This document shows positions 297 through 30,661 of a stretch of DNA of 31,322 bases, one piece after another. Source of the stretch: a virus (Duplodnaviria; Heunggongvirae; Uroviricota; Caudoviricetes). Location of the stretch: the IMG/VR virus record IMGVR_UViG_647533158_000003; one strand, 5' to 3'. Each line of letters begins with the position of its first letter. The first letter of the stretch is position 1. The notes beneath the pieces are model-generated. The model saw nothing but the letters and a program-made list of their open reading frames with translations. It did not search any database and was not told where the DNA came from. The translations under genes and the position numbers were made by a program.

Positions 297-1337
297 CTAA
301 GCTGCCGCGACATTTTTGCGACATTTTAAGGGGTTAAGTCGCACGGCATCTTCAAGGTGGCTTGGGGCGAAATGGGCATAACGCATTGTCATAGTGATGT
401 CAGCGTGGCCGAGAATTTTTTGCAGAACCAGAATGTTTCCGCCGTTCATCATAAAGTGGCTGGCAAATGTATGGCGCAGTACATGGGTAAGCTGGCCGGA
501 GGGGAGTTCAATGCCTGCACGTTCCAGAGCAGAGCGGAAAGCGTTGTAGCAGGGCTTGGGGAACAGAGCGCCTTTTGTTTCAGGTAATTCGGACAGAAGT
601 TCATCATCAAGGGGAATTGTTCTGTTGCGCTTCCCTTTGGTTTTGACGAACGTGACTTTACCCCCGGTGATCTGGGAGCTTTTCAGCGTTGCCGCTTCAT
701 TCCACCTTGCGCCGGTAGCAAGGCAGATTTTGACAACTAATTCTAGGTACTTAACTTTACTTCGTTTGCATTCCAGTAAAAGCCGATCAATTTCTTCGGT
801 AGTGAGGAAAGCCATTTCGGTTTCATCAGTACGATACTGTCTGACGTTTTCTAGTGGGTTGGGTGCTGACCATTCACCAATCCGTTTCAGCTCGTTGAAC
901 ATAGCCAGGAAGTAAGCATGTTCAAGGTTCATAGTTTTCGGGGAAACCTTAGATACTCTGTTGGTACGGGCATAATGCCCATCCAGCCTTTTAGCGCGGT
1001 AGGCTGTGAACAACTGGGCATTAAATTCTGTGGCCAGCGGGAATCCCATGCATTCCGCCGCCCAGGTCATAGCATTTTTACGCTTTTCGCCATTGCTCAA
1101 AGCTACGCCGTGGCGTTCATACCACATTGTTATCAGATCTATTAAAGTTCGCTTGTCCTTCCCTTCACCCAGCCACGGAGCTGCGTCTACTTTCTGAAGC
1201 GTATGGTTTTCGAATGCCAGGGCTTCCCCTTTCGTGGCAAATTTTTTACGTATACGCTTCCCGTTCTTGCCATTACTGCGGTTGACGGTGTAGAAGTCGG
1301 CGATCCATTCGCCTGTAGGAAGTTTACGAACGCTCAT
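297..1337 (-). CDS. int: Phage integrase, tyrosine recombinase (P2/186 Int family)
   Basis: 346-aa ORF. C-terminal region ...LTHVLRHTFASHFMMNGGNILVLQKILGHADITMTMRYAHF... carries the R..H..R..Y catalytic signature of tyrosine recombinases. Located at the prophage end, immediately downstream of the repressor gene. Confidence 0.93.
   Translation of the reverse strand: MSVRKLPTGEWIADFYTVNRSNGKNGKRIRKKFATKGEALAFENHTLQKVDAAPWLGEGKDKRTLIDLITMWYERHGVALSNGEKRKNAMTWAAECMGFPLATEFNAQLFTAYRAKRLDGHYARTNRVSKVSPKTMNLEHAYFLAMFNELKRIGEWSAPNPLENVRQYRTDETEMAFLTTEEIDRLLLECKRSKVKYLELVVKICLATGARWNEAATLKSSQITGGKVTFVKTKGKRNRTIPLDDELLSELPETKGALFPKPCYNAFRSALERAGIELPSGQLTHVLRHTFASHFMMNGGNILVLQKILGHADITMTMRYAHFAPSHLEDAVRLNPLKCRKNVAAA
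309..323. repeat. Putative attL core (GACATTTTTGCGACA), overlapping the last codons of int
   Basis: Exact 15-mer repeated at 30647..30661. An att core overlapping the 3' end of int is a common P2-like arrangement. A chance 15-mer match between the two short flanks is unlikely. Confidence 0.4.
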
Positions 1338-1338
1338 T

Positions 1339-1962
1339 TTATTTTATCGTCAGAACAACGCGGCCTATGATTTTTATGTCGTCAATTCCGCAATCAAATG
1401 CCATACCAACACCGCTAACTCTGACTTTTCGTACCGGAATCCGTGTAAGAGTGCGGACGCTTGTTTTTCCTTCAACTTCAACCAACCAATCATCGTCATA
1501 AACTTCAGAATAAGACTGGTCAACAATGTACTGAACAAGGCCATCCAGAACACAAATCGGTTGTTGCGGTAAGGGCTTACCAGGCAGGAAGATGACTTTA
1601 TCAAGCATAAGTGTGCCAGCGTCATAGAGTTGGCCATCAACAATCTTGCTGCGCGGTATTTTGAGTATGTCTAATTCATCATCATTAAATTTACGTCCCT
1701 GTCCTGTCGCCAGCCACTCCAGATTAGCGCCTGTTTCGGCTACACATTTCACGACAATGTCTGCCGGGAAAACTCCACGCTTGTAGCGTGAAGAAAGAGA
1801 ACTGGCTGCCATGTCCAGATGTTCCGCGAGCTGTAACTTCTGCGTAAATCCGTAAGCCTCGATCACCCTGTCAAGAATCGGTGTGCTATCTACGTTTAGG
1901 TCGATTTTAAATGTGCTCATAGCGAATCCATAAGTCTCGGTTCGAGAAATTGAAATTGACAC
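1339..1962 (-). CDS. cI: CI-type immunity repressor (phage 186 CI-like); true start possibly at the internal Met (1339..1920)
   Basis: The N-terminal region YGFTQKLQLAEHLDMAASSLSSRYKRGVFPADIVVKCVAETGANLEWLATGQG resembles the Phage_CI_repr HTH domain. Its stop is 1 nt from the int start (cI-int operon as in 186/P2). The upstream start overlaps the operator-like inverted repeat, so the internal Met start (MSTFK) is more plausible. Confidence 0.85.
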   Translation of the reverse strand: MSISISRTETYGFAMSTFKIDLNVDSTPILDRVIEAYGFTQKLQLAEHLDMAASSLSSRYKRGVFPADIVVKCVAETGANLEWLATGQGRKFNDDELDILKIPRSKIVDGQLYDAGTLMLDKVIFLPGKPLPQQPICVLDGLVQYIVDQSYSEVYDDDWLVEVEGKTSVRTLTRIPVRKVRVSGVGMAFDCGIDDIKIIGRVVLTIK

Positions 1963-1970
1963 TTCTCGAA
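1941..1970. promoter_or_regulatory. Lysis-lysogeny switch region: inverted repeat TTCGAGAA-N14-TTCTCGAA, with TTGACA at 1956..1961
   Basis: Perfect 8-bp inverted repeat between the repressor gene and the rightward early genes; a consensus -35 hexamer is embedded. Operator and promoter assignment is inferred from position only. Confidence 0.4.
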
Positions 1971-2055
1971 ACGCGAATTAATCTGGCTCCATATTTCGAA
2001 TGTTGCCTTATATAACCCTGTATTGCCGTACAGGTTAACTTGTGGAGTTTGCCTC

Positions 2056-2277
2056 ATGCGTCCGAACATTACAATCATCATCCCAGAGCCATACCTGCCT
2101 TTAGACGAGTATTGCCGCCGTACTGGTACCAACAAAGAAACCGCCAGGAACCTGATCGAATACGGGAAATTACCTATTAAGCCGAAGGGTAAGCAGAAGA
2201 AAGGCCTGGTCGAAGTCAACATGGCCGCGCTCACTATTCAGGCGTTAAGCGAATGTGACATTTCGCTTAACGCGTAA
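2056..2277 (+). CDS. Apl/Cox-like small DNA-binding regulator (excisionase / early-switch protein)
   Basis: Small basic ORF, first gene of the rightward early operon, in the position of P2 cox / 186 apl. I take the ATG at 2056 (MRPNITIII...) rather than the track start at 2023, which lies in the promoter region. Confidence 0.65.
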   Translation: MRPNITIIIPEPYLPLDEYCRRTGTNKETARNLIEYGKLPIKPKGKQKKGLVEVNMAALTIQALSECDISLNA

Positions 2278-2307
2278 TCCATCCTACGGATTAGGGAGAG
2301 GCAAACA

Positions 2308-2811
2308 ATGTTTGATTACCAGACCTCTAAACATGCGCACTTTGATGCGGCTTGCCGAGCATTTGCAATTGAGCACAATCTTGAAGATGTGGCCGCTGCC
2401 GTTGGTATGAGGCCGCAGATCCTGCGTAATAAACTGAACCCAGCGCAACCGCACCGCCTGACCTGTGATGAACTTTTGGCTATCACGGATTACACCGAAG
2501 ATGCGCGTTTACTGGATGGGATGCTGGGGCAGATTAACTGCCTTCCATCCGTACCGGTGAACAATGCAACAGAAGGCAACATGCAACTGTGTGCACTGAG
2601 CGCCACAGCCAGTGTGGGCGCGATTGCTGGGGAAGCCGTATCAGCTGGCCATATGACCGCCGCCCGCCGTACTCAAATTCTGGATCGCGCCCGAGATGCA
2701 ATCCGTAGCTTATCCGTGCTGGCTTATACCGTTGAAAGCCGTATTCACTCTGCGCCGGTTTTGGCCGCTGCGGTGGATCTGGTCACAACCAACGCCACCG
2801 GCCTGATGTGA
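2308..2811 (+). CDS. cII: CII-like lysogeny-establishment regulator (phage 186 CII family)
   Basis: 167 aa. N-terminus MFDYQTSKHAHFDAACRAFA...LRNKLNPAQPH closely resembles my recollection of 186 CII. Preceded by RBS GGGAGAGG. Confidence 0.8.
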   Translation: MFDYQTSKHAHFDAACRAFAIEHNLEDVAAAVGMRPQILRNKLNPAQPHRLTCDELLAITDYTEDARLLDGMLGQINCLPSVPVNNATEGNMQLCALSATASVGAIAGEAVSAGHMTAARRTQILDRARDAIRSLSVLAYTVESRIHSAPVLAAAVDLVTTNATGLM

Positions 2812-2820
2812 GGGAGAACC

Positions 2821-2994
2821 ATGAAAGCGTTTGTCACTTACCTGAAAAACGAATCACCGGCCATGCAATTGCCCAGTGGTTCAACGGGCTGGATTGAACT
2901 GCCGAACGGTCAGCGCTGGAACCCTGGCCACATGTACAAATTCAATGGCCAGCAGCCGCGTCGCCCGTGGTGGCGTCGTCTGATGGGGCTATAG
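2821..2994 (+). CDS. Small hypothetical early protein (57 aa), in the position of 186 fil
   Basis: ATG at 2821, preceded by GAGGGAG, with an open frame to TAG at 2992..2994 (MKAFVTYLKNESPAMQLPSGSTGWIELPNGQRWNPGHMYKFNGQQPRRPWWRRLMGL). Not on the track because it is under 60 aa. Function not recognised. Confidence 0.4.
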   Translation: MKAFVTYLKNESPAMQLPSGSTGWIELPNGQRWNPGHMYKFNGQQPRRPWWRRLMGL

Positions 2995-3003
2995 GGGGGC
3001 GCT

Positions 3004-3432
3004 ATGGCGATTAGCCAGGAACAGCAAAAGCGCGGGCTGGAGCATTTAAAACAGATCCGCCGCAAATACTTCAGCGAAAGCAGCGAGGCCGCTGAATGGT
3101 GGGACAACTTGACACCGGAGTGGCGCGGCGTAGTACTTCATGCTGCTGCGGTTACTTCTGGTACCGGGGCATTTAAAGCCCATTTAAGCAAGTGCTGCTG
3201 GCGTGAGCTTTATGAACGCTTGGGCTATCGGGACATGATTCAACTGCGCCAGGGCATTTCACGGGCGCGGTTAACGTTTGAAGGTTTCGGCAGTTTACGT
3301 GACAGCGATTTTTCGAAACGTACCGCGAACCGCCCAATCAAGAAGGTTCATCCAATTTATAGCAGCAGCGGGGTGCAGATGGTGATTGCACCTCATATTG
3401 TCCAGAAGTTACAGCAACAGGGGAATCACTGA
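3004..3432 (+). CDS. Hypothetical early-region protein
   Basis: 142-aa ORF, tightly packed in the early operon between cII and gene A. No family recognised. Confidence 0.6.
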   Translation: MAISQEQQKRGLEHLKQIRRKYFSESSEAAEWWDNLTPEWRGVVLHAAAVTSGTGAFKAHLSKCCWRELYERLGYRDMIQLRQGISRARLTFEGFGSLRDSDFSKRTANRPIKKVHPIYSSSGVQMVIAPHIVQKLQQQGNH

Positions 3433-3833
3433 TGTCCATTATTTCGGTTGAAGGTAAATCACTAGGGGCAGAGCTGGCTGTGTGGGGCGTCCCGCATAAC
3501 TACGCATTAGCGTTTGCAGAGAAAAGCACCAGTAAAAATGGGCGTATCGCTTTGCATCCGTTCTTCTTCAACGACACTGAACACATGACAAATCCGCGTC
3601 ACTGGCTGGCGATCAATGCTGCTTTCTGGTGCTGCGTATATCGCGAAGCGAAAAGCAAAGAAGCCCAGATAGAAGCGCTGGCGGGGATTCGTGCAATTTT
3701 CTATACAGCCGGGGCGTTGGGAGTTGGCGAGATAAAAGCGCTGATCCAGGAGTGGTGGCGGATAACCTATGAGCTGCACCTGATTCCGGCACCGAACTAC
3801 TCAGCCGCCACAGTACAACCCACTTTTCACTAA
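3432..3833 (+). CDS. Hypothetical early-region protein
   Basis: 133-aa ORF whose start overlaps the upstream stop (translational coupling). No family recognised. Confidence 0.6.
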   Translation: MSIISVEGKSLGAELAVWGVPHNYALAFAEKSTSKNGRIALHPFFFNDTEHMTNPRHWLAINAAFWCCVYREAKSKEAQIEALAGIRAIFYTAGALGVGEIKALIQEWWRITYELHLIPAPNYSAATVQPTFH

Positions 3834-3900
3834 TTAACTGCCTGAATTTTTTGTCCACGATTCAAGTGGCCGGGGATTCTTTTGCCTTGAGGAAACCAAA

Positions 3901-4134
3901 ATGCACATGACACGTCAGGATTTACCCGCAACAAAATCAGGCACCGACCTGCTGGCCATGCTCACCAAAGCCACGCAGGAAGGTAAAGCCGCAACTGCTG
4001 ATCTGTGTTCCACCCGTCTGGATAAGCTGGCTACTCATGCAGCCAATGAAGGTTTAAGCGCAGCGGAAATCGTTGAGTTAATCCGCGAAGAAGCCGCAGC
4101 TATTTGCAGTAAAGGCGGTGCCGTATGGCAGTGA
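3901..4134 (+). CDS. Hypothetical small early protein
   Basis: 77-aa ORF directly upstream of replication gene A. No family recognised. Confidence 0.45.
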   Translation: MHMTRQDLPATKSGTDLLAMLTKATQEGKAATADLCSTRLDKLATHAANEGLSAAEIVELIREEAAAICSKGGAVWQ

Positions 4135-4158
4135 TAACTCGGTAAAAGTGGGTTAACC

Positions 4159-6183
4159 GTGATTGATATGCTGGAACCTAGCCAACACCACGCCGTCAAT
4201 GCCTGGCGGCGTGAAACCTTTGCGCCTGGCAGCCCGTCAGATGCGACGATCACAGAACGCCGCCTGTGGGCTGTTAACCCAGAGGATTACGAATGGCGTT
4301 CCCAGTACCTGCATGAGATACCCGACTGGTTAGCCGGGTATTTTGGCAATCGTTACGAAAGACTGTTTGCTGGTCGTGACGGGCGTTGCCGTGCCAATAC
4401 ATTCCTGCGCCAGACTATCGGTGGGAGTGTATTGCCACGTCTGCGTAAGGTGGCCGCACGTTACACGCTGGCCGCTGATGCACTTGATCTTCCCTTTGGT
4501 AAGTCGCTGGAGCGACTGCCGTCACTTGACCGTCCCGACCTTAAAAAACTGGCTGGACAGATTTCTGGCTGGATCTCCCAGTCATTGTATGACTTCACCG
4601 ATCAGTTTGTTGGCAGCACCGAAGATGCCGCAGAGTTGCGCCGCCGTACGCTGGAGTCTTACCGCCATCTGTGCGCCTGTTCCCTGATGCTAAATAACCA
4701 GCCGCCTTATTGGGCTGAACATGAAGCCAATGGCGGCCAGCTGGAAACACGCAAGGCTGAATCCGGGATTCTTCGCATGATGGCGCTGGAATGGTGGGTG
4801 CTGCGTCTGAAGCGTGCGCGTGATGTGCAGCGTGAACATATGGCTATAGCCGTGGGGCAGGTTCAGAAAGCCGCCACTGCGTATGTATCCCGCAAAACCC
4901 TGGGTGAATGGGTTGACCAGAAAAAGCGGAATCTGGAGTTCTTTAAAAAGTTTGATCTGCTGAATGATGAGGGGCTGCGCATTTCACTGGACAGTATGGT
5001 GCATCGCAGCGTTGCAAATCCGGCGATCCGTCGCTGTGAGCTAATGGTAAGAATGAGAGGATTTGAAGATATGGCCAATGAAGAAGGGCTGGCCGGTGAG
5101 TTTTACACCATCACCGCGCCATCACGCTTTCATGCGGTACACAGTAAAGGTGGTTTTGTTTCGCAATGGGATGGATGTACACCGCAGGATACCCAGCGTT
5201 ATTTATGTGGTGTATGGGCGAAAGCCCGCGCAGCGATCTCCCGTGCCGGTATTCATGTTTTTGGTTTTCGCGTGGTTGAGCCTCACCATGACGGGACACC
5301 GCATTGGCATATGTTGCTGTTTATGCGCCCGCACGATGTGGACACCGTGCGCGATATCCTTTGCTATCACGCCAGAATTACCGACTCTGAAGAACTGAAA
5401 ACAGAAAAGGCGCTTAAGGCACGTTTTCATGTTGAGGCTATCGATCCCGCCAAAGGTTCGGCAACGGGTTACATCGCCAAGTACATTTCCAAAAACATTG
5501 ATGGATTTGCACTGGATGGTGAACAGGACGACGAAACCGGGGAGAACATGCGCGATATGGCCAAATCCGTTTCTGCCTGGGCTTCACGCTGGCGTATCCG
5601 CCAGTTTCAACAGATTGGCGGTGCGCCGGTGACTGTCTGGCGTGAGCTGCGCCGGTTGCGTGATCAGGTGCTGACCGATCGCAAAATGGATGCAGTGCTG
5701 GCCGCTGCTGATGTTGGAGACTGGGCAGCGTATACCCAGGCGCAGGGTGGCGCACTGGTTGCCCGTCGTGATCTGGTTGTTCGTCTGGCCTATGAAATCA
5801 CAGAACAGGGTAACGAGTACGCGGAGGACGTGCAGCGCGTTCAGGGTGTCTATTCTCCCTTAGTTCCAGATTCAGAGGTTTGTACACGTCTGGTGAAGTG
5901 GCAGAAGGTGGCGAAGTTGGCCGAAGCGTCAGCGGAGGCTGGTTTTTCTGGCGGCAGCGCCGCCCCTTGGAGTTCTGTCAATAACTGTACGGAGGGTGGA
6001 ACCCGCAGACGGTTAAAACTGGAATTGCGCAGCCGGGGTTTTGATGGTTCTGACGAAGAAATAGCCATTCTCATGCGGGGTAGTGGTTTGAGATTTGGCC
6101 AGGTGGCATTGATTTACCGTAATGGCCGGTTGCAAGAGACACGAAGCGAGCCAATGCACGAGCTGTGGCCGGGGTGGTTGTAG
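4159..6183 (+). CDS. A: Replication initiation endonuclease, P2 gpA / 186 A family (rolling-circle initiator)
   Basis: 674 aa. Contains the HUH-like motif PHWHMLLF and the tyrosine motif GYIAKYISKN typical of P2 gpA-family initiators. Start is GTG at 4159 or ATG at 4165. Confidence 0.93.
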   Translation: MIDMLEPSQHHAVNAWRRETFAPGSPSDATITERRLWAVNPEDYEWRSQYLHEIPDWLAGYFGNRYERLFAGRDGRCRANTFLRQTIGGSVLPRLRKVAARYTLAADALDLPFGKSLERLPSLDRPDLKKLAGQISGWISQSLYDFTDQFVGSTEDAAELRRRTLESYRHLCACSLMLNNQPPYWAEHEANGGQLETRKAESGILRMMALEWWVLRLKRARDVQREHMAIAVGQVQKAATAYVSRKTLGEWVDQKKRNLEFFKKFDLLNDEGLRISLDSMVHRSVANPAIRRCELMVRMRGFEDMANEEGLAGEFYTITAPSRFHAVHSKGGFVSQWDGCTPQDTQRYLCGVWAKARAAISRAGIHVFGFRVVEPHHDGTPHWHMLLFMRPHDVDTVRDILCYHARITDSEELKTEKALKARFHVEAIDPAKGSATGYIAKYISKNIDGFALDGEQDDETGENMRDMAKSVSAWASRWRIRQFQQIGGAPVTVWRELRRLRDQVLTDRKMDAVLAAADVGDWAAYTQAQGGALVARRDLVVRLAYEITEQGNEYAEDVQRVQGVYSPLVPDSEVCTRLVKWQKVAKLAEASAEAGFSGGSAAPWSSVNNCTEGGTRRRLKLELRSRGFDGSDEEIAILMRGSGLRFGQVALIYRNGRLQETRSEPMHELWPGWL

Positions 6184-6302
6184 CGGTATAAATCTGTGTA
6201 ACACATTCATTTGTCAGTAGATGGTAGGAAAATAGATTTCACAATTTGTGCTTTACGGTGTACTGTATGCATATACAGTTATATATTGTTTGTGGGGGCT
6301 AA

Positions 6303-6485
6303 ATGGATCTTTTGGAAGCGTCGGCACAGCTGGAGCGTATTGAGTTATTGGCCAAAATTGCCCATGTGTACGAAAGTGACCAGCGCGAGAAAACAATCGC
6401 TTTGGCCTGGATTGGTGAGATTGCAGGAGAAATGCGACACGATCTTAGAAAAGATTTAAAAAAACAAGGTCAGGGGCCTTTCTAG
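6303..6485 (+). CDS. Small hypothetical protein (60 aa) downstream of gene A
   Basis: ATG preceded by GGGGG. Could be the last early-operon ORF. Weak support. Confidence 0.35.
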   Translation: MDLLEASAQLERIELLAKIAHVYESDQREKTIALAWIGEIAGEMRHDLRKDLKKQGQGPF

Positions 6486-6606
6486 TATCTGATGGGGAAT
6501 GTTAACTCATTGACAATACTATAATCTCAGTTGTAAGGTACCGAATGTTATAGTGTTTAAGATGATTAATAGCTTGTTGACTATAAATTTATCTATATCT
6601 CTTAAA

Positions 6607-6650
6607 CCCTCACTTTATTTTGATAAGAGTGAGGGGGGATATGATTTTTT
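6607..6650. terminator. Candidate bidirectional terminator hairpin (CCCTCACT ... AGTGAGGG) with a downstream T-run
   Basis: 8-bp perfect stem at 6607..6614 and 6628..6635, followed by ATTTTTT at 6644..6650. It sits between convergent genes 6303..6485 (plus) and 6657..7694 (minus). Confidence 0.4.
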
Positions 6651-6656
6651 ACGTTC

Positions 6657-7694
6657 TTAAACTTCTACTTCATTTTTAGAGTATATTTCCCCATCTTCTT
6701 TACGTATGCAATCACCAATGATGACTTTAAAATCTAATGATTTAATCGTATCAATAACATGATTGAGATAAATGCTATCAATTGTAGCAGGGCATAAACT
6801 TTTTAACTCATGGCCAAGTGGTGTTAGAATTAAAACCCTTAGTTTAAGTTCTTTCTTTGGATCGTCATGTTTAATCTGCATTACTTTATCATTATATATA
6901 TGATAATAAAAATAGGTTTCTTTACTAAGAGACTTGAAAGTTGAAGCTAATCCCATTGACTCAACTCCAGCAATGATGCCCAATGATTGCATCTCAGATA
7001 AAAAATTATAGTTTAGCTCATTATCTAAGTATTCGTTGCTGAAGTTCGAACCAACTTTCTCCCCCTTGATAATCCTATCAAGAAAGAGAAAAGAGAACAG
7101 TTTTTGTATTTTATTTGCTTCTTTTTGTGTCAGATTTTTGATGAAATCAACAGTTCTTAATGAATACGAACCTGGGCTTTTTAATTCACCTGCAAGTATT
7201 CTTCCCCATAAATCCTGTAACTTCTCTGAACTACTTGTTGCAGCACTATCTCTCCACCTTAGCAACCAATCATTTTCTATATTTTCGGCAGTAGGCTCAG
7301 ACTGATCAATTGAAAGTATTTCTTCGGCAACAAATAATGACTTGGCGATATTTATTTCTTTCTGGACTTCATTTGCAATAAGTTGAGTGCTTACTGCATT
7401 TTTTAAATTATCGAAATTTATGTAAGGCTCCATTGAACCTGAATTATCATACTCTTGTTTACTTTCTAATGAAATCAGTTTGGGGTTGTTTAGATCATTT
7501 AACGAAACGATTGCTTTTCCACTTTTTATGTTCTCAACATCCATCTCTGTTTGAGCCAAAACTAACATTTTTTTCCTTTCCATTTCTAAACTGGCAACTC
7601 CCTCCCTACGCATTTGCCAGGGCTTACATAAAGCGCCAATACCTTTTTCTGCTGTGGTTTCCCACAGTTTAGTTACAAGCTTTGAACCAAACAT
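6657..7694 (-). CDS. Orphan AT-rich accessory protein (345 aa) in the P2 A-to-Q accessory hotspot; candidate anti-phage defense or superinfection-exclusion gene of unknown family
   Basis: Clean 345-aa ORF with an ATG start and an AGGAG RBS. Composition is visibly much more AT-rich than the flanking phage genes. It occupies the slot where P2 carries old/tin. No catalytic motif recognised by eye. Confidence 0.75.
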   Translation of the reverse strand: MFGSKLVTKLWETTAEKGIGALCKPWQMRREGVASLEMERKKMLVLAQTEMDVENIKSGKAIVSLNDLNNPKLISLESKQEYDNSGSMEPYINFDNLKNAVSTQLIANEVQKEINIAKSLFVAEEILSIDQSEPTAENIENDWLLRWRDSAATSSSEKLQDLWGRILAGELKSPGSYSLRTVDFIKNLTQKEANKIQKLFSFLFLDRIIKGEKVGSNFSNEYLDNELNYNFLSEMQSLGIIAGVESMGLASTFKSLSKETYFYYHIYNDKVMQIKHDDPKKELKLRVLILTPLGHELKSLCPATIDSIYLNHVIDTIKSLDFKVIIGDCIRKEDGEIYSKNEVEV

Positions 7695-7697
7695 TCT

Positions 7698-7844: not shown

Positions 7845-8114
7845 TCACGCTACAGTTGTGGCTTTCAGTAAATCCAGTGCCATCTGTTTTTGAGACGGTG
7901 ACATGTTGTTAAGTAGGGCTTGAACAATCACATCACCCGTTTTCGCACTGGGGCTGAGAGTGTGGGAGAACGTCAGATTCATCACAAACGTATGGCCACA
8001 CTCAACATCTGAACAGGCGCAGTAAATATCCGCAATCTGCCGGTGCTTCCGGTTTGTTTTACGAATAACAGCCTTTGAGCCGCATTCCGGGCATTCGATT
8101 TTCAGAACTCGCAT
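7845..8114 (-). CDS. ogr: Ogr/Delta-family zinc-finger late-gene transcription activator
   Basis: CPECGSKAVIRKTNRKHRQIADIYCACSDVECGHTF matches the C-x2-C ... C-x4-C Ogr/Delta zinc-finger pattern (compare P2 Ogr CPLC...YHQCQNVNCSATF as recalled). I take the start at the internal Met MRVLKIECPECG; the track ORF extends to 8168. Confidence 0.75.
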   Translation of the reverse strand: MRVLKIECPECGSKAVIRKTNRKHRQIADIYCACSDVECGHTFVMNLTFSHTLSPSAKTGDVIVQALLNNMSPSQKQMALDLLKATTVA

Positions 8115-8164
8115 ATTCCATGCTCCAGCTGTTAAATGATGCCTGGATTTTAGCCTTTTTCGCC

Positions 8165-9226
8165 TCATGCCGCATCCTTATCCGTTGATTCTGTGTAACT
8201 TAAATCAAAGTTAAGGCGCAGTCTTTCCGGTATTTCGGGATCGTTGTTAACAGCGGTCATAAACCTGCGCTGAATGGGCGCTATCTCGCTTTTCTTGTAA
8301 ATCCTTTCCGCCTTTTCAACATCCCCCAGACCGGCAGTGTTCTGCGGGACAATTCCTGCCAGTCCTGCCGGAAAGCGGTGCGCGTTGAGAATGTCCTGCG
8401 CACTGATGTTTTTGATGTTGGCAAATTCATCTTTTGCGGAGATATCCCCCATTTCAATGAACTTGATCGCATCCCCATCCCCGCCAGGAATGTTCACCAG
8501 AATAGTGGAGAAGTTACCGATACCTTTGCTGTCACGCAGTTGCTGTTCAATCTCTTCTTCCATTTCATCCGTCATACTGGGATCACGCGTGTAGAGAATG
8601 CCGCCAGTATGAGCGCCGTTGTGGTAGTAGCGGCGGCGAAAAATTACGGCTTCGCTGTTAAGCAATGCCGAGTGTACGCCGCCGATATAGTCGGGCAGTC
8701 CGTAAATATGCTGTTGCGGGTCGTACATCTTGATAAAAATGATATCTTCCTGTGGCCATACCTGCGGTTCGCCGTCCTGCAATACCACATAATCGCCGGG
8801 CTGGTCTGTGGCGTTGTCCCTGACTTTACGGCGGCGAATATACAAGCCGGGTAAAGGTTCCAGGGCAATCACATCCCCCCATCCGTTGCGGATTTTGCCA
8901 ATCGCAATATCCCCGAAGGTTGTATAGTCAAACGCTGCGGCTTCCAGCTGGTCGTAAGTCAGGCCACCGCCCAGATAATCAGACACAATCATATTTTTCC
9001 GGGCGTGGATGATGCCGCCATGCTGACCATTCAGATTGATGAGCTGTGCCAGTGCCAGCCGGTCAATCGGCTGGGTAAAGTGATCGGCGGCATTGTCGTA
9101 CCAGATGTCGCGGTAATCCGTACCGGTGGTCAGCACGGGTTCCGGTTTGCCGAATGTAATGATGCTCATTTTTTTGGACTTATCGCCGCGCGGGTTGCGC
9201 TTAACGAAGCGGTTTTTTTTACTCAT
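8165..9226 (-). CDS. Q: Portal protein (P2 gpQ family)
   Basis: 353-aa ORF immediately downstream of, and overlapping, the terminase gene on the same strand. Size and sequence are consistent with P2 gpQ portal. Confidence 0.9.
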   Translation of the reverse strand: MSKKNRFVKRNPRGDKSKKMSIITFGKPEPVLTTGTDYRDIWYDNAADHFTQPIDRLALAQLINLNGQHGGIIHARKNMIVSDYLGGGLTYDQLEAAAFDYTTFGDIAIGKIRNGWGDVIALEPLPGLYIRRRKVRDNATDQPGDYVVLQDGEPQVWPQEDIIFIKMYDPQQHIYGLPDYIGGVHSALLNSEAVIFRRRYYHNGAHTGGILYTRDPSMTDEMEEEIEQQLRDSKGIGNFSTILVNIPGGDGDAIKFIEMGDISAKDEFANIKNISAQDILNAHRFPAGLAGIVPQNTAGLGDVEKAERIYKKSEIAPIQRRFMTAVNNDPEIPERLRLNFDLSYTESTDKDAA

Positions 9227-13047: not shown

Positions 13048-13050
13048 TAA

Positions 13051-22703: not shown

Positions 22704-22713
22704 GGAGTTTTAT

Positions 22714-24288
22714 ATGTCACAGACAACTATCACGCTGGCGTTTGAGCAATGGAAAGCGAAACAGGCCGCGACAGGTGAGGCGGTTTTACTGGACGAGTTT
22801 GTGTTTGCCAGTGTGCCAGGACTGAACCCTGATACCCCCGTTGACCGGAATGAAAAACTGCCACCGGCTGCGCAGATTGTTCACCGGCAGCCCGTTACCC
22901 GCACCGGCGTGGTGAATGAAAACGGGGTGGTGTATTCCGCTGTACTGGGGGCAGACGTGGGGGATTTCAGTTTTAACTGGATCGGTCTGCTGAATAAGGC
23001 CAGCGGAACGCTGGCGATGATTGTTCATGCACCGGCGCAGCAAAAGCTGAAAACGAAAGAAGGCCAGCAGGGTAACGTCCTCACCCGTTCATTCCTGATG
23101 GAGTACAACGGCGCCCAGACCGAAACCGGGATTAATACACCGGCTGAGACGTGGCAGATCGATTTCACTGCGCGTATGGCCGGAATGGATGAACGCCAGC
23201 GTCTGGAAAACGTGGACATTTACGGCGCGGCGGCGTTTTTCGGTGATGGTTGGCTGGTCAGTAAAACCGGTAATCAGTTTTTCGTGACCAAAGGCACCGG
23301 CTACGTGGCGGGGTTACGTGCGCCACTGGATGCAAACAAGAATATTACCGTGACCGCCAAACCGGTAAAGGTCTGGCTGGATGTGTGCTGGACGGGGGCG
23401 TTGACCAGTGTCTGGAATGTTCAGAGCAAGATTACCGTAGCGGAAAGCCTGGCTGATTATGTGCAGAACGGCGTACAGCATTACGTGTTTGCAGTGGCCA
23501 GCATTGATGTGAATGGAAATATCGCCGATTTGCGGCCAAAAGGGACGCTGAATGAGCAACAGGCAAGCAACGATTATCTGCGCAAAGATGCCAGTCTTGC
23601 TGATGTAAAAGACAAACCGAAAGCGCGAAAAAACCTTGCACTAGGTGAGCTGGCGACACTCGACAGAAATGATGTGTTGCCGGTGGGGATACCGGTACCC
23701 TGGCCAACGGATACGCCGCCAGCCGGATGGACATTGATGCAAGGCCAGGCTTTTGATAAAGCGGCCTATCCATTGCTCGCGGGTGCGTATCCTTCCGGGG
23801 TCATACCTGATATGCGGGGCTGGACAATTAAGGGGAAACCGGTCAGCGGTCGTGCAGTGCTTTCACAGGAACTGGATGGCATCAAGTCACATACTCACAG
23901 CGCGAGTGCATCAAATACGGACTTAGGCACTAAATCAAGCAGTGCCTTTGATTACGGTACTAAAACAGCCAGCACATTTGACTATGGCACTAAAACCACG
24001 AACAACACCGGAGCGCATACGCACGGTATTTCTGTTGGTAACACAGGCGCAGGTAATGGCGTTTCAGCGGGCTATAACTCAGGGCTGGGCAATGGAACGA
24101 CGGGGAGTGCAGGGGCGCACGCCCATACGGTCGGTATTGGCGCTCATAACCACACCGTCGGAATTGGTGCTCACAGTCACACGGTGGCAATTGGTGCTCA
24201 TGGGCACGCCATTACTGTGAACGCTGCCGGTAACGCAGAAAACACCGTTAAAAACATCGCTTATAACTACATTGTGAGGCTTGCCTGA
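22714..24288 (+). CDS. Tail fibre protein with C-terminal His-x-His repeats
   Basis: 524 aa. C-terminus has repeats AHTHGISVG / [36 protein letters not shown]. Followed immediately by a tail fibre assembly gene. Confidence 0.85.
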
Positions 24289-24875
24289 TGACTTTCAAAA
24301 TGACCGACCAGGATCGGATTATCACTGTTTACAACCTGCTGGAGAGCACCCGGGAATTTATTGGCAAAGGTGATGCGTTCATTCCTGCTTTCACCGGCTT
24401 ACCCGCCAATTGCACCACGATAGAACCCCCGAAAGCAAAAGCCGGGTTTACTGCCGTTTTTGATGCTGAGAATCAGGAATGGATTCACAGTGAAGACCAT
24501 CGCGGTGAGGTGGTTTTTAGCACCGAAACGGGGCTTGAAGTTGCGATCACGGAACCTGGTGCGTATCCGGACGGAACGACCACTATTGCCCCGGAAAATC
24601 CCTGGCAGAAATGGGACGGTGGCGCATGGGTTGATGATGAAGATGCGGCGCGTGAAGCGCTGGTTAAGGAAGCGGAAACGCATAAGAAAACCCTGCTTAA
24701 TCTGGCAAACGGGGCTATTGCGACATTACAGGATGCCGTTGATCTTGATATGGCGACGGACGACGAAAAACAGAGCCTGGTTGAGTTCAAAAAATTCCGT
24801 GTGCTGCTGAGTCGTATTAACCCGGAAGATGCACCAGACATTGTCTGGCCGGAGGTACCGGGTAATGTGGCGTGA
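24288..24875 (+). CDS. Tail fibre assembly chaperone (Tfa / P2 gpG family)
   Basis: 195 aa. Start overlaps the fibre stop. Conserved C-terminal region ...KQSLVEFKKFRVLLSRINPEDAPDIVWPEVP is typical of Tfa proteins. Confidence 0.85.
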   Translation: MTFKMTDQDRIITVYNLLESTREFIGKGDAFIPAFTGLPANCTTIEPPKAKAGFTAVFDAENQEWIHSEDHRGEVVFSTETGLEVAITEPGAYPDGTTTIAPENPWQKWDGGAWVDDEDAAREALVKEAETHKKTLLNLANGAIATLQDAVDLDMATDDEKQSLVEFKKFRVLLSRINPEDAPDIVWPEVPGNVA

Positions 24876-25590
24876 TGCTCGTCTGGCCTTCACGGATTCG
24901 CTGGCCGCGTTAAGTTGTTCCATTGTTCCCGCGCATCCGTGGATCCACGGACTGGGGCAGCAAACGGAAAACGGGGCATATCTCAGTCCGGTGAATGCCG
25001 TCAGATATCTGGCGGAAAGACTGGCCGGATCGGGTGGTCATGCTGACGTGGTTATCATGATGGTCACTGGCCAGACGCAGGAAAATTTCATGTCCGGGCT
25101 TAACAGCCTGGTGGATGTGTTCCCCGCACCGGCATTCACTCAGGTAAAGCGGCTGGCACAGTCCGCAGCGGAACTGGCCATTACAAAAATGCAGATACCT
25201 GCAAAAGCCGGGATGGTTTTACCTGCGGCCATACCGTTGTCTGTTCCAACCAGCAGGGCGGCATTATCCGCAGTGGCCATCAGCCAGGCGCAGGCAGCGG
25301 CCAGTGCCGGTTTTGATTTAAACGGGATAAAACAGCAACTGGATGAGTTCACGCAGCTGCGCGACAAACTGATTAATGATGTGGCCAGCGGGTTAAGTGA
25401 CTTGCAGGGGAAAAGCGCCAGGGCATGGGTATTCACGGCCAGCGGTGATATCGGCACAACCCTGCGGGAGCTGGTCAAAGATATACCGCAGCAGTCTGCC
25501 GTTTATACGGCAGCCATGATGCTGGTTGGCGATAATCTGGATGGAATAAAGGGAATGATTCATGACTTCGATCCCAACGCTGGCGCTTAA
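24865..25590 (+). CDS. Hypothetical tail-associated protein
   Basis: About 241 aa from the ATG at 24865 (MWRDARLAF...), overlapping the Tfa stop. Ala-rich. No family recognised. Confidence 0.5.
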   Translation: MWRDARLAFTDSLAALSCSIVPAHPWIHGLGQQTENGAYLSPVNAVRYLAERLAGSGGHADVVIMMVTGQTQENFMSGLNSLVDVFPAPAFTQVKRLAQSAAELAITKMQIPAKAGMVLPAAIPLSVPTSRAALSAVAISQAQAAASAGFDLNGIKQQLDEFTQLRDKLINDVASGLSDLQGKSARAWVFTASGDIGTTLRELVKDIPQQSAVYTAAMMLVGDNLDGIKGMIHDFDPNAGA

Positions 25591-26107
25591 TGGTGAAGCC
25601 ATACCGCTGAAGAATATGCGTGTGACGGTCTCGCAGCAGTTTCAGGATAAAGACCAGTCCGGGCAGACCAGCGCCACGACCAAATCAGAGCAGGGCGCAA
25701 AGGGAAAAGAGCTGCGTATCAGTGGCGAAATACCATTTAAAAAACCGGAGATCCTGAAGCGTATTTTTGAGCTGGCCAGCGCCACCGATACCGGAGGCAA
25801 TCGCCAGAAATACCGTGTTGCCCACGAGGTGGCCAGAGCCGTTAATTTTCGTGAGGCAACGTTCAGCGGAACGCTGGATGCCCCACAGCAGGACGGGAAA
25901 ATGGCCTGGTTGGTGACATTCACGCTGGCAGAACATATCAGCGTGCAGGAAAAGCGGGAGGCCAGGGCAACCGGCAAAACGACAGCGAAAAAACAGACGG
26001 CGGGCAGCACAGGGCAATCCGGTGGGCAGTCTGCCGGAGAAGATGAAGAAAAACTGACGTGGTTTGAAAAGAAAGTGCTGAAACCCGTCAATGATGTGTT
26101 GGGTTAA
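25562..26107 (+). CDS. Hypothetical tail-associated protein
   Basis: 181-aa ORF coupled to the flanking genes, with Lys/Gln/Gly-rich low-complexity segments. No family recognised. Confidence 0.5.
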   Translation: MTSIPTLALNGEAIPLKNMRVTVSQQFQDKDQSGQTSATTKSEQGAKGKELRISGEIPFKKPEILKRIFELASATDTGGNRQKYRVAHEVARAVNFREATFSGTLDAPQQDGKMAWLVTFTLAEHISVQEKREARATGKTTAKKQTAGSTGQSGGQSAGEDEEKLTWFEKKVLKPVNDVLG

Positions 26108-27810
26108 TGATGAAACCAGTAAAACGCCTTTACCTTTCAACGGATGAAGTTCACCTAGCCGATGCCAGCCTGGTGCTGGAGCTGAACAGTTGCGGCCGGG
26201 GATTTATCACGGCACAGACAACCACGGATTACACTGGAAAACTGGTGCGGCTGGATGTGGGGTACAGCGATCTGCTTTTGCGCTGGTTTACCGGCTATGT
26301 GGAACGCTCACAACCCGCAGAAAATGGCTTTCAGCGTCTGTTTGTGCGCGAACTGGTCGGCGTATTTGAAAGAATATGGCCATGTTCATTTCAGCACCCT
26401 ACCTTGCGGAAGGTGGCCAGTTGGCTGGAGGAAAACAGCGGGATCACCATCAGCGTACCTGATGCCCCATACAGTGACACGCCGATCCCACATTTCACCC
26501 ATAACGGTACCGGGTACCAGCTGCTGAATAATCTGGGCAGGGCATTCAGTATCCCGGATTACATTTGGTATCAGATGCCGGATGGTTCGCTGTACGCTGG
26601 CGGCGCAGAAAAGGCGCTGTTTGCCGGTCGTCCGGTCGATATTCCGGCAGAGTTCAGCCAGGGTGCTGCTGGCGGTAATTCCATGACATTGCCGGTTATC
26701 CAGAGTTTGCGACCGGGTGCGGAACTGAACGGGGAGCGTGTGACCAAAGTCCATCTGACCAATGACACGATGGCTGTCACATGGACACCCAGGAACCGCG
26801 CCACGGGTAAGCCATTGCAGAAAACACCGGCACAACGCCAGGTTGAAAGTCATTACCCGGAACTGGCCTCCGGGCTTCATTTGCCGAAAATGGCCAGAGT
26901 GGTATCACACAGCGAGGCGGTCACCAGCGGTAATTTTGCCGATCCGTTCCGGCCAAGGTATGCCGTTGACGTGCAGCTGCTTGATGCAGACGGGAACCCG
27001 GACAATCAGACTCCGGTTTATACCGCAGTACCGCTGCCGGTACCGATGGCCGGCCATGACTCCGGTATGTTCCAGTTTCCGCCAGAAGGGACGCTGGTTG
27101 AAGTCGCGTTTACCGCAGGTCGACCGGATAAGCCGTTTATCAGGCAGACGTTGCCGGATGGTACCAGCCTGCCGGATGTTAAACCCGGTGAGCAGCTGCA
27201 ACAGCAGCGGGCTGAAGTGTCGCAGCGAGTTACCCAGGCTGGTGACTGGGTGCGGCAGACCGATCAGACCATCAGTGAAACATCGATGGCGCGGACGGTG
27301 AAAGCAGATACAGAACAGCGCGAGCTAGTCAGCCGTGAAACCACGGTTAAAGCCACGGATAAAACTACTGTGGTGGGTACCGCTACCCTGATGGCCGGAG
27401 CCATTCAGCAGGTCAGTGCCGGGGATTTTAGCCAGGCCGTGAAAGGCAACAGGCTGGCCAGCATTGAAGGGAATGACGAAACCGATATAACCGGGAAACA
27501 GTCCACGAAAGTGGCCGGTGCTGTGACCGTTGACGTGGGGGAAAGCCTGACAGAAAAGATTGCCGCGCTGCGCAAATCCGTGGCCGCTGGCGGTCAGCAG
27601 GTTATGGGGGCAACTGTGCATATTGGCAGTGAGAGTACCAACGCCCTGACCATGATGCTGGACACCATTGATTTGCTGGCAGAACTGGCGCGGCAGTGCG
27701 CGAGCCATTCACACCCCAGTGTCGGTACGCCAACCAATGCCGGAGCGTTCACCCAGACAGCGACAAAGGCCGGACAGACCCGGAGCAAGTACCAGAGCAT
27801 CATTGCCTGA
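26107..27810 (+). CDS. Putative baseplate hub / central spike protein (gpD-like N-terminal region with a gpV/gp5-like OB-fold segment)
   Basis: 567 aa. The segment RYAVDVQLLDADGNPDNQTPVYTAVPLPVPMAGHDSGMFQFPPEGTLVEVAFTAGRPDKPFI resembles the OB-fold signature of gpV/VgrG spike proteins. Last gene before the late terminator. Confidence 0.55.
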   Translation: MMKPVKRLYLSTDEVHLADASLVLELNSCGRGFITAQTTTDYTGKLVRLDVGYSDLLLRWFTGYVERSQPAENGFQRLFVRELVGVFERIWPCSFQHPTLRKVASWLEENSGITISVPDAPYSDTPIPHFTHNGTGYQLLNNLGRAFSIPDYIWYQMPDGSLYAGGAEKALFAGRPVDIPAEFSQGAAGGNSMTLPVIQSLRPGAELNGERVTKVHLTNDTMAVTWTPRNRATGKPLQKTPAQRQVESHYPELASGLHLPKMARVVSHSEAVTSGNFADPFRPRYAVDVQLLDADGNPDNQTPVYTAVPLPVPMAGHDSGMFQFPPEGTLVEVAFTAGRPDKPFIRQTLPDGTSLPDVKPGEQLQQQRAEVSQRVTQAGDWVRQTDQTISETSMARTVKADTEQRELVSRETTVKATDKTTVVGTATLMAGAIQQVSAGDFSQAVKGNRLASIEGNDETDITGKQSTKVAGAVTVDVGESLTEKIAALRKSVAAGGQQVMGATVHIGSESTNALTMMLDTIDLLAELARQCASHSHPSVGTPTNAGAFTQTATKAGQTRSKYQSIIA

Positions 27811-27820
27811 CCATCCCATC

Positions 27821-27847
27821 AGCCCGCATCTAAAGCGGGCTTTTTTG
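27821..27847 (+). terminator. Rho-independent terminator ending the late/tail operon
   Basis: Stem AGCCCGC (27821..27827), loop ATCTAAA, stem GCGGGCT (27835..27841), followed by TTTTT. Lies 11 nt after the hub gene stop. Confidence 0.7.
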
Positions 27848-28399
27848 TACCCCTCGCCTGACGCCCTGCGGCGCAATCTGAGCGCCAAAATCCACACACT
27901 GACACCACGTAACACCTAAAAAGGATCTGTGCCGTCACGTTGCGCTGACGTAGCCACACGCAGACAAAATAAATCTTTCGCAGACAAAAACGGCACTACA
28001 CCGCACCCGCCTGCGGTTTTTGGATCGTGAAAATTTTTCAGTTTTATTTTTCTTCAAACCAGATCTCCAGACCGCACCAGCATTGATGGCTTTGCAGAAA
28101 ACCAAAACTGAAATGATTGAAAATAATTTCACTGTTTTTCAGTAAATAGGATTTATTATTCTATTATATTTTACCGTAACTATCAGATATATAATGATAA
28201 AATTAACTTTGGTTATAATGAAAAGATTGGCAAAAGGGATGTAGTAGTAGACTAAGTTATAGAAATTGTATGATTTTCTTCAAGTTACGATCTGTTGAAA
28301 ACATTATTGGGTTGAAAAAAGTGAAATAGTTATTATGATTTAGTATTCGTGTTTTGATAGTCATTAGATAAGCTTAGAATTGTTATAATATAACATTCA

Positions 28400-28993
28400 A
28401 TGGATAAAATTATGAGCATACTTACTCAATATGGAAAAGAAATTTTTGCTTTTATCGTTCCTGTCTTCACCTTAATTATAAATAAATATTTTAAAAATAG
28501 TGCCAAGATTAGCTACGGGGAATTGCATCAATTTACTTATCTGATTAACCAACCTTTAACGAATCAAGAAGGTGAAGTGGTGAAATCGTCGCAAACCGTA
28601 CATACGCAATCATATGTTTTTAAGAATGAAGGTAGAGAAGCAGCAACGAATATGGAGGTTATTTTTAACTATGCACCGATGTATCTTAATATTTGGCCAT
28701 CGCGCCTCTATACGGTAAAAAATGATTCAGAACAAAGGCATATTATGGTATTTGATTATTTAGCACCGAAAGAGGTTATACGGTGTGAAGTGATAGCTAT
28801 CAATACACAGGTGCCAATGCTTTTATCTGTAAGGTGCAAAGAAGGTCTTGCTCAGAACATAGTGCTATCGCCACAAAAAGTTTTCCATCCTGCTTTTATA
28901 AACTGTGTTCGTTTCTTGATATTCCTGGGGTCGGTAAGTCTGGTATACATTCTTGTAGTTTTACTTCAGTGGTTACTCTTAAAAACAGGTTAG
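28400..28993 (+). CDS. Hypothetical two-TM membrane protein (197 aa), AT-rich cargo gene
   Basis: Predicted TM helices near the N-terminus (IFAFIVPVFTLIINKYF) and C-terminus (FLIFLGSVSLVYILVVLLQWLLL). Composition is strongly AT-rich. An extended -10 element TGTTATAAT lies at 28381..28389. Confidence 0.55.
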   Translation: MDKIMSILTQYGKEIFAFIVPVFTLIINKYFKNSAKISYGELHQFTYLINQPLTNQEGEVVKSSQTVHTQSYVFKNEGREAATNMEVIFNYAPMYLNIWPSRLYTVKNDSEQRHIMVFDYLAPKEVIRCEVIAINTQVPMLLSVRCKEGLAQNIVLSPQKVFHPAFINCVRFLIFLGSVSLVYILVVLLQWLLLKTG

Positions 28994-29070
28994 AAAGTTA
29001 CCTGTGCAAAAACGCTTTTAGCTTGTGTGATGTTATTGTAAATATTTTCGTGAAATTAACCATTTAAAGA

Positions 29071-29092
29071 AAGCCACTATTTTGAGTGGCTT
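29071..29092. terminator. Candidate bidirectional terminator hairpin between convergent cargo genes
   Basis: 8-bp stem AAGCCACT (29071..29078) and AGTGGCTT (29085..29092) with loop ATTTTG. Lies between the 3' ends of 28400..28993 (plus) and 29133..30557 (minus). Confidence 0.35.
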
Positions 29093-29132
29093 CATTAGGT
29101 TTCTTTAATGGTAGAATTGCGAGTAATGTTTA

Positions 29133-30557
29133 TTAACTCACTAAGTTCACATAGCTGATTGCTATACGTAAAAAACTGTCGAGTGTATCGACGCTTTCTT
29201 TTATTTCTTTGTTGACACTAATCAGTTTTTCCAATCGTTCATCACTAAAATGACTTGTTATATGAATTAAATCTTCTAATATCGAGACTAAATCATTAAC
29301 AATACTAAGCTCTTTTGAAATTTCATTTTTAATAAAGTAATATTCTTCATTACCGAGTTTATCAATTAATTTATGCTGTAACTTATCCCACTTATCCAAT
29401 AGTCCATATGTTTCTGATGTTATTTTTTTCGTATTTACCAGAATAGTAGAACCTTCACTCACTTCTTTAGCATAAAGTCTATTGTGCTTTAACCAGCGAA
29501 TATTTTCATTTCTTTGTTTCAAGATGCTTTTATTTATCTTTTCGAGTTCAACATGTTTGTTCCATTTTTTTATAATATCATTTATCTTATTGTCTGTAAT
29601 TTCATACTCATTAAGAACGTTGCTGTTAAATGATAATTCTTCTACTTCTTTTAGGGAAGACTCACTAATTTCAATATCTTTAAGGTGGTTTTTTGCCTCA
29701 TGTAGAAAAGTTAATTGGTTAATTAATTGGAAGTTTTGGATGTTGGCTTCGTTGCATATTTCTGTTTTTAAAGACTCAAGAGCACCGTGTGTTTTTCCAG
29801 CGTGTGCAAACCACCAATCCTCTTTGTTATCATCACAAATAAAAATTACATTTTTTATTTTCTCTGATTTGGCTTTTTCAATGATTTCTCTCCATAAATA
29901 CAAATCACCGAATTTGTCCTGAAATTCAATGTTTGTGAAGAATGATTTACTTTTCTTTGGCGCGTCTTTGAATCCTGGTGGTATCTTATTTTCATATCTT
30001 TTTTCACCAAGTGCATTTATTTTATCTATTTGTTCCTGAGTAGGGACTTCACCAACTCTATTAGAGGTAATTATGTCGATCCTGTCACGAATAATGTCAT
30101 GCTTCGATATTTTCTTTTTGTTTTCAATTCTTGGAGTTATCTTTTTATTAATATACTCCTCAATTGGTTTTTTAATTTTACTTTGCAGATCAGAAAGTTC
30201 TTTGTTTAAAGCGCTATAAAGATGTTTTTTTACACTACCAGAAGATAATATTTCTTTCGTATAAATGCTTTCTAATTCATCTTTAATTTTATCTAGGCTT
30301 TTAATACTATCTTCAATTACAGAACGTCTGTTTCTCTGATATTCAAATCCAACTTGGAATGGTATCCAAGTTCTGGGAGCAATAGCATCCATTACTTTAA
30401 GTATATCTTCGCGGGTATGATCTTCACATCTATATAAGTTAAGAAGGCAATTTGTATCAAAAACAAAAAGAGTGGAATCATCCAACCATATATTTGCTAC
30501 TGATTCAGTAGGAGTACTATAGAAACCTAAAAAGGTTGATTTCAAGGGGACCTCCAA
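29133..30557 (-). CDS. PIN-like domain protein (474 aa), candidate nuclease-type defense or abortive-infection effector; start probably TTG (30555..30557, or 30543..30545 after a GGAGG RBS)
   Basis: N-terminal strand motif LFVFDTNCLLNLY is a typical PIN beta-1 signature with the first catalytic Asp; a later acidic cluster VIFICDDNKEDWW follows. The C-terminal half is long, Lys/Glu-rich and helical. The gene is AT-rich and sits in the cargo island. Confidence 0.7.
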   Translation of the reverse strand: MEVPLKSTFLGFYSTPTESVANIWLDDSTLFVFDTNCLLNLYRCEDHTREDILKVMDAIAPRTWIPFQVGFEYQRNRRSVIEDSIKSLDKIKDELESIYTKEILSSGSVKKHLYSALNKELSDLQSKIKKPIEEYINKKITPRIENKKKISKHDIIRDRIDIITSNRVGEVPTQEQIDKINALGEKRYENKIPPGFKDAPKKSKSFFTNIEFQDKFGDLYLWREIIEKAKSEKIKNVIFICDDNKEDWWFAHAGKTHGALESLKTEICNEANIQNFQLINQLTFLHEAKNHLKDIEISESSLKEVEELSFNSNVLNEYEITDNKINDIIKKWNKHVELEKINKSILKQRNENIRWLKHNRLYAKEVSEGSTILVNTKKITSETYGLLDKWDKLQHKLIDKLGNEEYYFIKNEISKELSIVNDLVSILEDLIHITSHFSDERLEKLISVNKEIKESVDTLDSFLRIAISYVNLVS

Positions 30558-30646
30558 TGTTTTTAACTACTTCATAACTAGCATATTTTATTCAAGTGAT
30601 CCGGTGTTCGCAACTCCTTTGGATAATGGTGTCTAAATATTAATGA

Positions 30647-30661
30647 GACATTTTTGCGACA
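30647..30661. repeat. Putative attR core (GACATTTTTGCGACA)
   Basis: Exact copy of 309..323, lying between the last cargo gene and the mntR upstream region. Confidence 0.4.

Follow-up and report, generated by a model that had tools for sequence, protein, structure and literature searches.

The locus raises the question of where a prophage was joined to the Escherichia coli chromosome, and whether the perfect repeat near both of its ends is the site of joining. The window, that is, the whole stretch of 31,322 nucleotides of IMG/VR record IMGVR_UViG_647533158_000003, carries this prophage between the divergent host genes mntS (1-129, minus strand) and mntR (30855-31322, plus strand). An earlier note had placed a P2/186-like prophage between these two genes, and both the host genes and the P2/186 family (Peduoviridae) were borne out by host gene annotation and phage gene content. 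The note had further proposed the 15-mer GACATTTTTGCGACA as a direct repeat that flanks the prophage and forms its attachment core. A pattern search of the window found exact copies of the 15-mer at 309-323 and at 30647-30661, of which the left one overlaps the final codons of the integrase gene int (297-1337, minus strand), as had been described. The repeat is also not a chance event: with up to 2 mismatches allowed, only 0.12 matches are expected, and there is no third copy in the window at that tolerance. In this study, we found that the true attachment core is nevertheless another sequence, the 11-mer GCTATATTATA, which is common to attB, attL, attR and a contiguous attP. The window holds a 30.54-kb temperate Peduoviridae prophage, with an ESSI-2/Quadragintavirus-like body and a 186-like lysogeny module, inserted by its integrase at the mntS promoter region.

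The ends of the insertion were determined by host homology. The left 330 bp of the window, used as a query, matched 5,422 E. coli genomes, and the left host homology stopped at about position 213 in all but 30 of them. The right-end query matched the same genomes, with homology beginning at 30739. The coding sequence of mntS is annotated at the equivalent position in loci L001 and L002 and lies within the left-flank homology, and that of mntR was supported by annotation and right-flank homology. In the empty site of L001, which is K-12-like, the spacing between mntS and mntR is 185 bp. A three-way alignment was then read across the core. The empty site, attB, has ...CACAG GCTATATTATA TAGCTATTGC... 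with TAGC after the core, attL has ...CACAG GCTATATTATA AAGCATCAAC... with AAGC after the core, and attR has ...AACAAA GCTATATTATA TAGCTATTGC..., again with TAGC. From this alignment, the duplicated junction sequence is GCTATATTATA, with its attL copy at 199-209 and its attR copy at 30739-30749. The junctions are at 209/210 and 30738/30739, and the integrated unit is 30,540 bp. The 15-mer therefore does not flank the prophage, as about 100 bp of inserted DNA lies outside its left copy and 78 bp outside its right copy. The earlier note had named two outcomes that would refute its reading, junctions elsewhere in the empty-site comparison or a missing 15-mer at the empty site, and both were observed: the junctions lie elsewhere, and the unoccupied site has no match to the 15-mer with up to 3 mismatches allowed.

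We examined whether the junctions hold in other prophages with this integrase. In six further E. coli prophages, which form three divergence groups (~99, 92 and 86% nucleotide identity) and include two deleted remnants, the attL and attR junctions were identical to those of the window. The remnants, L003 with a 13-kb insert and L007 with a 9-kb insert, derive from the same prophage at the same site and keep both att junctions intact; in the annotated remains of L003, a truncated replication endonuclease gene abuts a truncated tail protein gene. Each copy of the 15-mer was found to be the overlap of two tandem 11-bp words with a consensus of about G[C/A]GACAYTTTT. A contiguous attP was provided by an IMG/VR contig of 29,624 bp, whose Int is 98% identical and which is circular because its ends overlap by 41 bp. 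Across the join, this relative reads GCGACATTTTTGCGACA, 60 bp, GCTATATTATA, AAGCATCAAC... (AAGCATC...), TATCAATAAGTTA... (the integration host factor (IHF) consensus), GCGACAATTTTGCGACATTTTAG and int, so that the 11-bp core is central and one word pair lies on each side. Recombination within the 15-mer is excluded because the circular relative keeps the word pairs on both sides of a contiguous GCTATATTATA junction. Two other accounts were rejected. A transposase target-site duplication does not fit an element that encodes a tyrosine integrase and occurs with a circular attP, and the circular relative excludes tandem elements in which the 15-mer would be an inner att site.

The position of strand exchange was narrowed by variants of the core. 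In L003 and L097 the attR core is GTTATATTATA and the attL core is GCTATATTATA. At position 12, A is always found in attL and attP, and T in attR and attB. These variants suggest that strands are exchanged within TATATTATA, with later mutation as an alternative source of the difference. The crossover is thus probably inside the 11-bp core and within TATATTATA, the exact cleavage positions being deduced from sequence comparison. On excision, the predicted junctions are ...ACAAA-GCTATATTATA-AAGCATC for attP and ...CACAG-GCTATATTATA-TAGCTATT for the repaired attB.

Since the 15-mer is not the core, we investigated the tandem words that it spans. The P' arm pair GCGACATTTTT|GCGACATTTTA (307-328, plus strand) holds the left 15-mer, overlaps the C-terminal codons of int and starts 97 bp to the right of the core. 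The P arm pair GAGACATTTTT|GCGACACTTTT (30645-30666, plus strand) holds the right 15-mer and is 72 bp to the left of the core. Within the window, the tandem pattern occurs only in these two arms, with 0.01 occurrences expected. The P arms of the six E. coli prophages are wholly different and carry different cargo genes, yet each has a tandem word pair starting 76-100 bp from the core, and the right-arm copy of the 15-mer varies between prophages with identical junctions. Relatives with tRNA-Ile2 as their target carry the same word in each arm, with the P-arm word at a fixed position of -114. Among 80 related integrases in IMG/VR, a tandem pair with an 11-bp period is always found at the 3' end of int, and the word itself changes with the Int group: TGTCGC-N5-TGTCGC where Int is at least 71% identical, TGGCGR-N5-TGGCG for the 186 group, and TGGCAGC-N4-TGGCAGC for another group. 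A strand of the Int N-terminus changes along with the word, reading WIADFY, WICELY and W(L/Q)AQ(F/V)F for TGTCGC, TGGCG and TGGCAGC, respectively. The domain-by-domain Int identities (78.5%, 73.8% and 71.7%) do not sharply separate arm-binding from core-binding divergence, and only the co-variation of word and strand is informative here. These results suggest that the word pairs are most likely arm-type binding sites for the N-terminal domain of the integrase. A hairpin with a 7-bp stem (CGGCAG...CTGCCG) at 286-307 has the int stop codon within it and borders directly on the first arm word; it scored as terminator-like on the plus strand, and its stem is not kept in the tRNA-type relatives.

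The arrangement was compared with that of phage 186. The GenBank record of 186 lists predicted Int arm-type sites (consensus YAYCGCCAYTY), of which three are left of attP and two are right of it. It also marks IHF footprints on either side of the core, sites for the Apl excisionase in the right arm, 36 bp in common with the 3' end of ileY and a crossover of 7 bp, again as a prediction. As here, the arm sites of the 186 sequence form tandem 11-bp units on each arm, and its right pair begins 97 bp beyond the predicted crossover, the same distance as that of the P' pair from the core in the window. The words differ by one base, CGCCAYT in 186 and CGACAYT here, so that the window word G(C/A)GACAYTTTT does not match the full 186 consensus and is a one-base variant of its CGCCAYT center. 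The two phages also share a homologous Int (55-67% identity to 186-type Ints by domain, and closer to the 186 group than to P2), adjacent int-cI on one strand and cox/apl-cII on the other, and an excisionase, and the IHF consensus match here may correspond to an IHF site of 186. They differ in the core, which is 36 bp in common with the tRNA-Ile2 (ileY) 3' end in 186 and 11 bp in the mntS promoter here, with no tRNA. Moreover, 186 has 3+2 arm sites and an extra open reading frame between int and attP, whereas the window has 2+2 and its P' pair overlaps the int stop region. The excisionase here has no BLASTP similarity to Apl, and the virion module is ESSI-2-like and not 186-like.

The candidate components of such a system in the window are as follows. 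The tyrosine integrase (297-1337, minus strand; phrog_1) has 346 residues: about 58 N-terminal residues, the Int_N core-binding domain (PF24624, residues 61-168) and the catalytic domain (PF00589, residues 177-325). It is followed by a 186-type CI repressor (1339-1920, minus strand; PF07022 and PF16452), which is annotated in L002. The first early gene (2056-2277, plus strand) encodes a Cox/Apl-like excisionase and repressor of 73 residues, identified by PHROG profile (phrog_575, E = 1.5e-27); BLASTP against 186 Apl gave no similarity and Pfam gave no match. In the P' arm, between the core and the P' words, TATCAATAAGTTG (249-261, plus strand) is a perfect match to the IHF consensus WATCAANNNNTTR, is kept in the attL of all relatives and stands where 186 has an IHF footprint; binding of IHF at this position is suggested by the consensus. 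No IHF consensus was found in the P arm. Int would have recombined attP with attB within GCTATATTATA, leaving the two copies now present in attL and attR. The N-terminal domain of Int on the arm words, the IHF bend at 249-261 and the Cox-like excisionase would assemble an intasome of the kind known from lambda, P2 and 186. Read most simply, this is a standard heterobivalent intasome, with the 15-mer as a probable part of the arm-type Int sites. The integration system of this prophage is ordinary, and its mechanism appears to be that of the known heterobivalent tyrosine integrases of the lambda, P2 and 186 type. We put the probability of the whole model, with crossover in the 11-bp core and the 15-mer as part of the Int arm-type sites, at roughly 85%.

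Several points weigh against this model. Int binding of the words and the recombination itself are deduced from DNA sequence. The left word pair is inside int codons, so its conservation may be partly at the protein level. The word pair is the only significantly similar block among the six P arms, and in 20,000 shuffles of each arm the pattern arose no more than twice, but it was written after those arms had been seen, which makes the p-values optimistic. The number of IHF matches in the window is not significant alone (2 found, 1.55 expected). No Pfam model matched the first ~58 residues of Int, for which an arm-binding fold is assumed, and the arm-type sites of 186 are themselves annotated as predicted.

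We next weighed the alternatives. The tandem words might bind another phage protein, the Cox-like excisionase or CI, and not Int. The excisionase Apl of 186 also binds direct repeats in attP, and Cox-like proteins recognize short repeated boxes. However, the Apl sites of 186 are confined to a single arm, where they separate the core from the Int arm sites, whereas the words here are on both arms, where they match the 186 Int arm-type sites in position and in tandem 11-bp format as a one-base variant of the consensus; the word also co-varies with the Int N-terminus across relatives. We consider binding by another protein unlikely. It is very improbable that the repeat has no function at the DNA level, with a left copy kept for the Int C-terminus, as its overlap with int codons might suggest, and a right copy arising by chance or as a gene-conversion duplicate. 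The right copy lies in non-coding DNA, makes up the only conserved block among six otherwise unrelated P arms and keeps its fixed -114 position in the tRNA-type relatives. No part of Int is less conserved than its C-terminal tail (85%, 65%, 31% and 17% identity in four groups), yet the tandem word is always present there. As for the 15-mer as att core, with prophage ends at 309-323 and 30647-30661, an exact 15-bp repeat near both ends of the insert is all that speaks for it, and it is hardly credible given an empty site with no match at up to 3 mismatches, host homology that ends ~100 bp and 78 bp outside the copies, a circular relative with both word pairs around the contiguous GCTATATTATA junction, and a right copy that differs between prophages sharing identical junctions.

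With the 11-bp core established, we examined how often the site is occupied and which sites related integrases use. The mntS site was interrupted in exactly 30 of the 5,422 E. coli genomes, and this int adjoins mntS in 30. Within this collection, the mntS site is used only by this integrase family. The site is occupied in ~0.6% of complete E. coli genomes, and also in other enterobacteria. All Ints at least 83% identical were joined to the mntS promoter, including those in hosts with a diverged mntS (L011-L013), and L147 has an attR with the core variant GCTATATTGTATAGC. A scan of species-representative genomes added one mntS-type locus, L171, which is cut at the core. Ints that are 71-78% identical have the same arm word in both arms and the core CTCATAATCGCTTGGTCGCTGGTTCAAGTCCAGCAGGGGCCACCA, which is the 186/ileY common region. 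These tRNA-type relatives carry CTCATAATCGC...GGGGCCACCA, identical to the 186 common region (the tRNA-Ile2 3' segment), and their target was identified by this identity to the annotated region. ARAGORN found no tRNA in the int-side loci of the tRNA-type relatives, as expected where only the 3' 45 nucleotides are present. The core of the window lies in the mntS-mntR intergenic region and not at the 3' end of tRNA-Ile2 (ileY/ileX).

In the species-representative genomes, the tRNA-Ile2 core was seen with all three arm words. The mntS target is therefore a derived specificity within a family whose other members use tRNA-Ile2. Between the mntS type and the tRNA type, homology of the P' arms extends right up to the core, and the cores share only (C/T)ATAAT, in the anticodon loop CTCATAAT of the tRNA type and in TTTATAAT of the mntS type. 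Another tandem word, GGGACAAAAAGGGGACA or its reverse complement, was observed beside the same tRNA-Ile2 target in L017 (~4238-4254), L021, L101 (9429) and L146 (9030), including sites immediately past the tRNA in loci where a TGTCGC-type prophage is already in place. These occurrences suggest a second integrase subgroup, or tandem occupancy, at the same tRNA-Ile2.

The host side of the site was then examined. The attB sequence GCTATATTATATAGC is a 15-bp palindrome. An ATAGC-N4-GCTAT inverted repeat is present just upstream of K-12 mntH (AAACATAGCCTTTGCTATGTTT), and the mntS-mntR spacer holds two copies of the same palindrome, an exact one at L001 1690-1703 and one with 1 mismatch at L001 1709-1722; L170 3126-3147 is also among its coordinates. 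In the window, ATAGCACAGGCTAT (190-203), with an exact ATAGC-N4-GCTAT, is intact beside mntS in attL as a probable MntR box 1, and ATAGCTATTGCTAA (30749-30762), the second MntR-box-like palindrome with 1 mismatch, is on the mntR side and corresponds to L001 1709-1722. The mntS/RybA start and the MntR sites were reportedly mapped by Waters et al. in 2011. The core (L001 1699-1709) bridges the two boxes, and integration leaves box 1 with mntS and box 2 with mntR. Both mntS and mntH are repressed by manganese-bound MntR (PMC4361602, PMC9806134). Because they are shared with the mntH upstream region and both genes are repressed in this way, the palindromes are probably MntR boxes.

The RybA/mntS transcripts begin at a single 5' end; the shortest is 205 nucleotides long. 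Given this length and a hairpin directly 3' of the mntS stop codon, mntS transcription should start near window position 180-185. Placed by sequence and the reported transcript length, the core would be roughly 15-30 bp upstream of this start, in the promoter. With a consensus promoter scan, no minus-strand promoter was called for mntS, whether the site was empty or occupied. A broader proposal is that occupancy by manganese-bound MntR gates integration or excision, or that the prophage, by moving the second box and the upstream DNA 30 kb away, alters manganese control of mntS, and that the family is also a case of natural integrase retargeting from a tRNA anticodon loop to a promoter via the common YATAAT with the arm sites kept. 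Taken as a whole, we regard this proposal as rather unlikely.

The remainder of the prophage was compared with known phages. The phage body (2308-27810) carries cII, fil, replication, ogr/delta, portal, terminase, scaffold, P2-type capsid, lysis, sheath/tube, tape measure, baseplate and tail fiber genes, among them the replication endonuclease A gene (4168-6183) and ogr/delta (7845-8168). The name P2/186-like given in the earlier note stands at the family level and for the lysogeny module, in which int, CI, the Cox-like protein, CII and Fil are 186-like, but the closest phages are ESSI-2-like (Quadragintavirus). From ~2.2 to 24 kb, the body has ~86% nucleotide identity over ~80% of the query (window 210-25000) to Escherichia phages ESSI2_ev015, ev129 and ev040 (Peduoviridae, Quadragintavirus), and it is ~78% identical to Cronobacter phage ESSI-2. 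The likeness to the three Escherichia phages covers replication, head, lysis and tail genes and the order sheath-tube-tape measure-baseplate. They differ in the int/cI/att region, which gave no match (coverage starts from query 1991 to 2099), and in the right-end cargo. The prophage is not of the same species as ev015, because ~86% nucleotide identity is below the usual 95% species line. The P2-type portal, terminase, scaffold and capsid, Ogr/Delta, the A-type replication endonuclease and nucleotide similarity place it in the ESSI-2/Quadragintavirus lineage of the Peduoviridae.

P2 itself uses a heterobivalent Int, with direct repeats of the arm type on each arm, together with IHF and Cox, and it integrates at non-tRNA sites such as locI, where the identity is short or imperfect. 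The window has capsid, portal, terminase and Ogr genes of the P2 type. The repressor here is a 186/lambda-type CI and not P2 C, and the tail gene order differs.

An AT-rich, variable cargo block lies beside attR (28000-30640), where the GC content drops from ~55% to ~30%. It encodes a 193-residue hypothetical protein of no family (28412-28993, plus strand) and a 470-residue PIN_8-domain protein (29133-30545, minus strand; PF18476). In relatives, this slot holds an AIPR-family protein, a 411-residue hypothetical protein, a serine acetyltransferase, or a trio of PIN, STAS-like and ATPase proteins, and it looks like a defense or moron hotspot. PADLOC gave no match for three cargo proteins. Two other slots also vary. 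A DUF2806 cargo gene (6657-7694, minus strand), between the replication gene and ogr in the window, is absent in L004 and L006, and a 594-residue P-loop NTPase gene is found between int and cI in L005 (32483-34267) and L006 (2645-4429) and is absent in the window.

The mntS-mntR spacer is not known to be a P2 attachment site, and a literature search (mntS with prophage; ESSI-2, Quadragintavirus, attB) likewise found no account of an att site in the mntS promoter, although absence from the searched literature is not proof of novelty. What is new here is an attachment site for which no description was found, together with a documented switch of core target within one integrase lineage. The result corrects a plausible-looking but wrong att-site call and defines attP, attB, attL and attR for this coliphage integration site. 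It shows that a perfect direct repeat near both ends of a prophage can be integrase arm-type sites and not the crossover core. The prophage junction is placed inside the probable operator region of a manganese-regulated gene, and either MntR gating or altered mntS control, if true, would be lysogenic conversion of manganese homeostasis. The family also provides a natural series of 186-family integrases whose arm word stays the same as the core target changes from tRNA-Ile2 to a promoter, and such a series is of use in studying or engineering integrase specificity.

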